Part shown: positions 23,001 to 26,000 of the stretch, piece by piece
How the letters are laid out: each line of letters begins with the position of its first letter
Position numbering within the stretch: position 1 is the first letter of the stretch
Origin: Rhynchobatus australiae
Taxonomy: Eukaryota
NCBI GenBank assembly: GCA_034780895.1
Contig: JAUZTB010000069.1
Span: forward strand, 19,374,582 to 19,438,581
Direction of reading: 5' to 3'
Length of the DNA stretch: 64,000 bases
Notes under the pieces: generated by a model
Told to the model about the DNA's origin: nothing
The model's database searches: none
What the model saw: the letters and a program-made list of their open reading frames with translations, nothing else
Translations under genes and position numbers: made by a program

Positions 23001-26000
23001 TTAATCCCAATCTGGGGTATTTGATGGAATGTTTGTGAAATTCTCCCCATTATCGTACCACCGTCAGCACAATTTTCACTGCAAGCTGGACGTCTAAACG
23101 TGAGCCAATGACAGTTGTCAGGCTGGTTAACCATGGAAGCCATCACATCTTCAAAGTAAGGGTCTGATGGATCCATCACACCAAAATATTAACCAATGCC
23201 ATACTACTGAAGTAGAGTATAATACTGTAAGGTGGTGCTAACAAGGAATTTTTGGTAAATCTTTACTAACCACCAGTGAGGCCTCAATTCTGTGCACACA
23301 CTTTAGGATGTCAAAGCATTGGAGAGGGTGCAGAGGAGGATGAAGGGAAGAAATGTGGATGAGAGTAATTGGCTACTTAATGCAATTGGAGGTGCTGGAA
23401 TTTGTTTTCTTCAAGCACAGAAGGTTAGTGGGAGACAAATTTGAAGTATTCAAGATTACAAGAGCTTTAGGGAAAATTTGCTGTGTCTGGAGAATGAATC
23501 AGTCACCAAAGTCACGGATTTAGAAAAGGCCGAACAACTAAGGAGAAGGTGAAAAGCTGTTTCTTCAACGGTTGTTATTAAAATCCAGAATGCACCACCT
23601 GAAAAGATGATAGAATCAGATCCAAGAAGAACCTTCAAAAACATCTGCATGTTTACATCAAAGAGAGCTCATCTGCAGGAACATGAAGAAAAACTAAAAG
23701 GACAACAGCTCCTTTAAAACACCAACAAAGCCACAATAGGTAGGCCAAACAGTCCTCCATTGTTCTGTATCACTGCGGAACTCTAAACTGTTTCACCGGA
23801 AGGAGGATCAGTAACCAAAGCGTAAAAACTGTATCAATTGATCAAGTGTCAAGATGAAGAAAATTAATTTCTTTTATAATATATATTTTAGGAGCTGGAA
23901 TCAACTGTCTGAAAGGGTAATGGAAGATTTATTAGCAATTTTCAGAAGGGATTTGGATAAATGCTTGACAATTTCAGGACCTTGAGGAAAAAGCCAGGGA
24001 ACAGATCTACATGGAAGGCTCTTCAAAGAGCCAGCACAGGCATGCTGGGCCAAATGACCTCCTGTCATGCTTTAAAATTCAATTAATCACATATTTGATT
24101 GATTAAGTGACCTTTCAGTGACCTAACATTACAAGGTTCATTGCTAGAACAACGTGTGCTCTCCCATTGGCAGGTCACGAAGCAGTAAGGTCATGCTGTC
24201 ACTGAAAGCTTTCCCCTTACAGCCAGTTGTCACACTTTGCATATCCAGCAGTGGGAGGCAAGTACAGAAAATGAAATTTCTGCACTTCTGGAATGGACCA
24301 GTCAATGTGAAACCTGCAAATCTTTGTTGTAAGCATGTTACCAGACATCGAAGGGTTAGCAATCAATTAAATCAGGCCTTTAAGACACATGCTGTGAAAG
24401 TCAATAACTTCACCCACTGAAAGAGAGCTATGATTAGAGTCTCAATATTCACCTTTGACAGTGACATCTCCATAACTTGGTACCGGAGCCTGTCTGTGCA
24501 TCAGCAATGGGAACAGCAGCTGGATTACCGAATGTATTCACTGTCAGTAAACCACATAAGGGGCACCAACAGAGTGCCAGTGATACCTCCCTTCTCAGCC
24601 CAGACTCCAAACAGTGACAGATTTTGCACTTATCTTCTGACTATTTACCATTATTAGACTCATGATATTTGAGGATTTTTTTAAATCATAGAATTCAGAA
24701 TCACTTCCACATTGATTGAAGGCGGAGTTTAGAGATAATACTTGGGAGTCATTCTCCATTATTTGTGCATGCATATTGCCCAAGAGGAGACCCCCATTCT
24801 GGAGTTGGAAGTCAAGGAAAACCCCTCAGATGGCAAAGAGCTGAAGGCCAAGAAATGATTAGATGGAACAAGAGGATGAGAACAAATCCTCAGATTAGTC
24901 AGAAATGGGCCAGGGCCCTTTTCCAACAGCAGGAAGAAAATAATTTAAGACAACAAAGAAAGCAAATAAATAACTAACTGGGTAAATGTAGAGACCAAGC
25001 CCTANNNNNNNNNNNNNNNNNNNNNNNNNNNNNNNNNNNNNNNNNNNNNNNNNNNNNNNNNNNNNNNNNNNNNNNNNNNNNNNNNNNNNNNNNNNNNNNN
25101 NNNNNNNNNNNNNNNNNNNNNNNNNNNNNNNNNNNNNNNNNNNNNNNNNNNNNNNNNNNNNNNNNNNNNNNNNNNNNNNNNNNNNNNNNNNNNNNNNNNN
25201 NNNNNNNNNNNNNNNNNNNNNNNNNNNNNNNNNNNNNNNNNNNNNNNNNNNNNNNNNNNNNNNNNNNNNNNNNNNNNNNNNNNNNNNNNNNNNNNNNNNN
25301 NNNNNNNNNNNNNNNNNNNNNNNNNNNNNNNNNNNNNNNNNNNNNNNNNNNNNNNNNNNAAGGGTCTCATAGTGGGCATAGAGGAGAATGAAAGAACAAA
25401 ACTACACACCAGGTGGCACCTTGGAGCTGCATAGGTGGTTTCAGTGTTGATTATTCTGCAATAAAGCTGCACGTCACCAAGAGCCTCCGCAGAGCGAGCC
25501 CTGCACACATCCCTTAGCCTAACTAGACACACCTCTGAAGTCTGCGCCCATACCTTCCCGCTTCATCCCCATGGCAAGACACTTCTGGTAGCGGCAGTAC
25601 TGGCACCGGTTACGCTGACGCTTGTCAATTATACAGTCCTTGTTATCACGGCAATTGTAGGTAAGGTCTTTGCGCACTGTGCGTTTGAAGAAACCTTTGC
25701 AACCTTCACAACTGTAAACGCCGTAATGCTTGCCTGAAAGAATGAGAGGAAATATTGTTAAAATTGTGTACAAAATTATGTAACATAAATGCAACATGAT
25801 CAACTCAACCTACGGAGAGAGATGCTTAATACAAACAGGTGATCAGTAACTTTGGGAGCACTTGTACTCTGTTCACTTTTTAACCAAGATCAAGAAATCC
25901 CACAGCACACTGATCATACTTTTCCACACTAGAAAATGGATAAATACTTAAATGGAAATATTCGTAGGTTTAAGATGAAAAATCAGGCAAGTAGGGCTAA

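Follow-up and report, generated by a model that had tools for sequence, protein, structure and literature searches.

Whether retinoic acid (RA) feeds back on an RXR gene of Rhynchobatus australiae is the question raised by a perfect DR5 motif in the window, which is the whole 64,000-nucleotide stretch of DNA analysed here. An initial annotation read this motif as part of a candidate retinoid autoregulatory enhancer. The reading preferred here, which we hold at about even confidence, is that the DR5 is a chance motif that can be bound but gives RA little or no control of RXRA in vivo.

The host gene RXRA

Exons located by motif scans identify the host gene as RXRA (NR2B1) on the minus strand, which bears out the proposal that the DR5 lies inside an RXR gene. 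Most of the DNA-binding domain is encoded at 25554..25733 (minus strand), in an exon that is identical to human RXR-alpha at 58 of 60 residues and precedes the DR5-bearing intron. An LBD exon scored 86.6 bits against RXR-alpha, 82.4 against beta, and 79.1 against gamma, and on both exons taken together the gene is nearest to RXR-alpha among the three RXR types. The hinge exon, found by motif scan on the minus strand at 16830..16998 (ends approximate), stands at the downstream end of the same intron. The DR5 is located about 1.4 kb into this 8.5-kb intron, behind the second zinc-finger exon. In human numbering, we take 25554-25733 to be exon 4, 16830-16998 to be exon 5, and the DR5 intron to be intron 4. 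Exon 1 was not among the RXRA exons located. Two arrays of a 34-bp minisatellite are also present in RXRA introns, at 8572-9009 and 39122-39228.

Two further RXR genes, one RXRB-like and one RXRG-like, are found on other contigs. Stretches of about 30 kb surrounding the RXRB-like paralog and 20 kb surrounding the RXRG-like paralog showed no DR0 to DR5 element, and no DNA match that would indicate an ancient element common to the RXR paralogs was detected in five 10-kb stretches (1015-3848 N in each).

The DR5 motif in the window

The motif occupies 24108..24124 on the minus strand, which is the sense strand of RXRA, and reads AGGTCA-ctgaa-AGGTCA, in agreement with the initial annotation in both sequence and place. 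It consists of two RGKTCA half-sites in direct repeat with a 5-base spacer. PMC7515732 describes DR5 as canonical for RXR/RAR, RXR occupying the 5' half and RAR the 3' half, and the claim that an element of canonical type lies inside RXRA fits this definition. No other exact AGGTCA-n5-AGGTCA occurs in the 64-kb window (shuffled sequences had a mean of 0.01, with at least one in 1 of 100 shuffles). When DR5s are defined by RGKTCA half-sites, the window contains 2 against 0.23 expected, a count reached in 3 of 100 shuffles. The second of these, GGGTCA-ggaaa-GGTTCA at 38789-38805 on the plus strand, lies in the long RXRA intron between exon-2-like and exon-3-like pieces, and it had no repeat match in the small local set of loci searched.

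A genome search with 24080-24300 returned only the match of this segment to itself (1 of 1 candidates), showing that the DR5 and three further half-sites are in single-copy DNA. The membership of the DR5 in a high-copy repeat consensus, named at the outset as a reason to abandon the proposal, was checked in this way and was not seen. The motif is thus a single-copy, non-coding site within a candidate target gene, as DR5 RAREs are.

Frequency and origin of perfect DR5s in the genome

Exact DR5s number 765 in the 2.23 Gb genome, compared with 732 for the reversed-pattern control, and exact DR6s number 726, compared with 818 for their reversed control. Because these four counts are so similar, perfect DR5s are not enriched in this genome. 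The rate of exact DR5s is 0.022 per 64 kb, or about 2 in 100 windows of that size, so the chance expectation of about 0.008 per 64 kb given in the initial annotation was too low by nearly threefold. The RXRA motif is one of the 765, and in this it resembles the background consensus DR5s of vertebrate genomes, whose count here is at the level of DR6s and reversed controls. It differs from them in having denser half-site surroundings and in sitting in a gene of the RA pathway.

The DR5 and its 3' flank form two 11-bp tandem units that are 91% alike, and the spacer agrees with the 3' flank at 4 of 5 bases. The same mark was found in 4 of 30 control DR5s, compared with 3.4% expected, a further likeness to the background set; the controls were the first 30 genomic DR5 loci, all on one contig. 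Because of this excess, DR5s of this kind may plausibly arise by short tandem duplication. In the RXRA intron, one AGGTCA half-site was probably turned into the perfect DR5 by an 11-base tandem duplication.

Another origin that has to be weighed is that the DR5 is the relic of a transposable element. The motif abuts the tail of a dispersed repeat (23888..24079, plus strand) that has 26 matches in the genome, and repeated DNA accounts for 7 of the 30 control DR5s, a single family for 6 of these. The unique match of 24080-24300, together with the lack of any match among the fetched loci, is against such a relic. One further copy of the identical 17-mer (L020) was inspected, and its flanks are unrelated to those in RXRA. 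A motif within a multi-copy repeat consensus is largely refuted by these results, and we regard descent from a transposable element as very improbable. We take the repeat at 23888-24079 to be a CR1-like 3' end, as its translation resembles the end of CR1 ORF2.

Perfect AGGTCA DR5s are carried elsewhere in the genome by one repeat family, to which 6 of the 30 sampled loci belong (L015, L022, L030, L032, L039, and L042; positions 1400-1620). Recurring DR6 spacers beside some of these DR5s suggest a unit of three half-sites. Many of the DR5s in this genome may owe their places to a mobile element that carried them.

The half-site cluster around the DR5

All six half-sites listed in the initial annotation were found at their positions: TGACCT at 24055, 24108, and 24119, GGTTCA at 24135, and AGGTCA at 24172 and 24188. 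They fall within 139 bp and form the densest cluster among the 165 RGKTCA half-sites of the window. GGTTCA (24135..24140, plus strand) is everted relative to the DR5 across a 10-base gap, with no change listed in the related organisms B, D, F, G, and I. The last two half-sites, found by half-site scan, form AGGTCA-n10-AGGTCA (24172..24193, plus strand), a DR10, which is a non-canonical spacing for RAR. Five of the six lie outside the adjacent CR1 tail, as had been claimed; only the half-site at 24055 is within the repeat.

None of the 30 control DR5 loci had more than four half-sites in 139 bp, and the surroundings of the DR5 at 24108-24124 were denser than those of all 30. At least five half-sites within 86 bp were obtained around a randomly placed DR5 in about 0.5% of 16,470 simulated placements in the fetched DNA, a post hoc figure, and at none of the 30 control loci. 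These comparisons show that the cluster is unusual for this genome. The claim of a dense cluster therefore holds for density, and it fails for a conserved unit, because D, F, and G carry changes in each half of the DR10; with the 24055 site in a repeat, a conserved six-site unit is ruled out. Several conserved DR1, DR2, or DR5 elements in one module, as in a multi-site RARE enhancer, are not present either, and the cluster holds a single canonical element.

Two other candidate features of the cluster were set aside. The flanking words, a PBX-like TGATTGAT at 24096 and a TGACAG-type word at 24196, are altered in D and F. An 11-bp inverted repeat (24112-24122/24198-24208), considered as an RNA hairpin, has one arm altered in B and the other in D. 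Separately, 4 of the 15 CAGTGAC/GTCACTG heptamers of the window lie within 24116-24618 (24116, 24198, 24459, and 24612), an observation made post hoc.

Comparison with related organisms

Relatives were compared in 8 of 24 runs, covering seven of nine coded organisms (B, D, E, F, G, H, and I; A and C were left out). The alignment of 24040-25004 (965 bases) is unrooted, has no outgroup for the direction of change, and is represented by 40 of 115 differences. Over these 965 bases, 14 differences were counted in H and 31 in B. D and F align in pieces, with about 84-88% identity outside a conserved block described below. Nothing aligned over 24088-24212 in organism E (run X13), which is no proof of absence.

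The absence of the DR5 from related species had been named as an outcome that would count against the proposal. Organisms D, F, I, and likely G carry the same 17-mer, at an intron divergence of about 13-16%, and B has an altered one. In D, it is read as intact because no difference is listed in 24103-24124 and differences are listed on both sides. In I, it is intact in the alignment of 24088-24212, and in F the five differences in 24088-24164 are all outside the motif. G is likely intact since it shares with F three listed differences and the loose end, with two more differences unlisted, and G is not independent of F. In B, a C>T change at 24112 converts the 3' (RAR) half-site to AAGTCA (one run, with all 28 listed B differences); this variant may be allelic. 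In H, the base at 24112 is C, with a minor part of the H differences listed. The DR10 half-sites are both changed in D, with one change each (24176 and 24189), and in F and G, with two changes each.

Pooling B, I, D, and F, 17 variable sites were found in 24100-24196, of which one is in the 17 bases of the DR5 (P=0.15) and five fall among the 30 bases of the five half-sites (P=0.56). The chance of an unchanged 17-mer along one such divergence path is 0.05-0.11. In F and G, the segment 24088-24164 has 5 differences in 77 bases compared with about 16% elsewhere (P=0.013, with ends chosen by the aligner), and two of these five changes are directly beside half-sites. In D, the neighbourhood of the DR5 has 36 changes in 290 bases compared with 6 in 46 at 24738-24783, similar to other alignable intron DNA. 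The intact states make the DR5 an old one, and the distribution of the 17 sites does not show constraint on it. Selective constraint is thus not supported, and the single change within the motif hits the RAR half-site of B.

These comparisons bear on two further explanations. First, the DR5 may be a working RARE, where RXR/RAR on the DR5 would recruit coactivators in response to RA and, together with the neighbouring conserved block, raise RXRA transcription in one tissue or another as a direct feedback loop, the extra half-sites being dispensable. A perfect, single-copy consensus that stayed intact in D, F, I, and likely G while the DR10 decayed would fit such an element, as would a half-site cluster found in so few placements. 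Second, the DR5 may be a site for COUP-TF or another AGGTCA reader with a dampening effect, or an RAR enhancer for another gene of the domain. RGKTCA repeats are bound promiscuously by other receptors, which favours a site of this second kind, and the same retention of the DR5 speaks for it; the weak constraint (P=0.15) speaks against it. Both are kept as rivals because the 17-mer survived DR10 decay and a conserved block is close by. We consider the working RARE rather unlikely and the site for another receptor or another gene unlikely.

The conserved block near the DR5

A single-copy conserved block lies at 24433..24611, about 310 bp from the DR5, and has no RGKTCA half-site. D has 6 differences in its 179 bases compared with 36 in 290 around the DR5 (Fisher P=7e-4), and B has 1 difference in 257 bases at the block compared with 27 in 708 elsewhere (Fisher P=0.004). 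The block shows that constraint can be detected with these data, and the DR5 region falls short of that level.

No Rfam family was found in 23800-25004 at E up to 1. The block holds TGACAG words. On the sense strand, a donor-like AAG/GTGAAT is present at 24453, one of four such sites in the intron, and a weak acceptor-like site at 24540 is in phase with exon 4 and would give an 88-nt frameshifting exon. Among 20 candidate proteins, no isoform with the block was found, which is weak evidence, and the literature search returned no report of an RXRA poison exon. From these sequence features, an enhancer or a cassette or poison exon is possible.

Retinoic acid control of RXRA in other vertebrates

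RAR genes are auto-induced through RAREs. The spacer of the RXRA DR5, ctgaa, is one base off that of the Rarb2 RARE, ccgaa. A genome-wide list of conserved DR5s was reportedly compiled by Lalevee et al. in 2011. RXRA itself is not known as an RAR target, unlike Rarb2, and a 2022 review (PMC8950952) states that it is unclear whether Rxr genes are RAR targets. According to a table of the same review, vitamin A deficiency lowers Rxra in the rat heart and vitamin A restores it, which would favour a working RARE. In zebrafish (PMC8608873), an RAR peak and RA-opened chromatin near rxrg genes are also on the side of a working RARE; among these genes, rxrgb has an RAR peak, and RA reduces its expression. 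RAR-bound regions often contain several motifs, as stated in PMC4446430, consistent with a working RARE within a cluster.

No support for RA autoregulation of RXRA was found in the vertebrate data sets searched. In the zebrafish endoderm supplements of PMC8608873, rxraa and rxrab are in no named RA-regulated or RAR-peak list; this covers the named gene lists, as the full RAR peak table carries no gene names. Rxra was not found among the differentially expressed genes of F9 cells in 10 supplement files of PMC4446430, nor in the text passages or 4 small supplement files of PMC7259794. PMC8564372 has nothing on rxra. These negative lists represent a few embryonic contexts in mouse and zebrafish. 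The literature search, with subscription papers outside its scope, found neither an intronic RARE of RXRA nor a report of the DR5 17-mer.

The closest known counterpart is the DR5 RARE of the Rarb2 promoter, through which RAR is autoregulated. Each lies in the gene of a retinoid receptor and is a DR5 built from RGKTCA half-sites, and the same polarity of RXR on the 5' half and RAR on the 3' half would apply to the RXRA motif, according to PMC7515732. The Rarb2 element, as described in PMC7259794, is at the promoter/5' UTR with RA-regulated chromatin marks, whereas the candidate in RXRA is deep intronic and has AGGTCA halves and weak constraint. The DR5 in intron 4 of zebrafish skap1 (hoxb) and the conserved set of Berenguer et al. 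2020 resemble the RXRA motif in being intronic, single-copy, and near conserved non-coding DNA. Those elements are inside deeply conserved sequence with RAR peaks and reporter support, whereas the RXRA DR5 is not part of the conserved block, and the DNA around it diverges at roughly the background rate. The intronic RARE in skap1 can serve a neighbouring hoxb gene (PMC8608873), a precedent for an enhancer that acts on another gene.

Origin and function of the DR5

In the preferred reading, the DR5 was likely kept by the slowness of sequence change and not by selection. In vitro it would be bound by RXR/RAR, with RXR on the 5' half and RAR on the 3' half as established for the DR5 class, and it likely exerts little or no RA control over RXRA in vivo. 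Of the additional half-sites, one would be repeat-derived, one older, and two coming and going between lineages. We hold chance origin at even confidence when the two bodies of evidence are set together. For it are the background count of DR5s, the 24112 change in B, the DR10 changes in D, F, and G, the duplication mark, and the empty gene lists. Against it are the retention of the 17-mer in D, F, I, and likely G, and the low divergence of 24088-24164 in F and G. The rare cluster and the conserved block 310 bp away are also against it. The single mismatch in B may still leave a RARE functional, since up to 1 mismatch is present in the conserved RAREs of PMC7259794.

Under either reading, the DR5 in the RXRA intron belongs to a class of element that is already known. 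Should it be there by chance, odds based on uniform composition overstate the rarity of a perfect DR5. It is doubtful that the DR5 and the block at 24433-24611 form one RA-responsive module through which RXR/RAR directly controls RXRA, with feedback kept in this fish lineage. If true, the module would be the first direct RARE for an Rxra gene, and the feedback would be undescribed in mammals or zebrafish. A working DR5 would settle for one lineage whether an Rxr gene is an RAR target, and the changed half-site in B would provide a built-in comparison.
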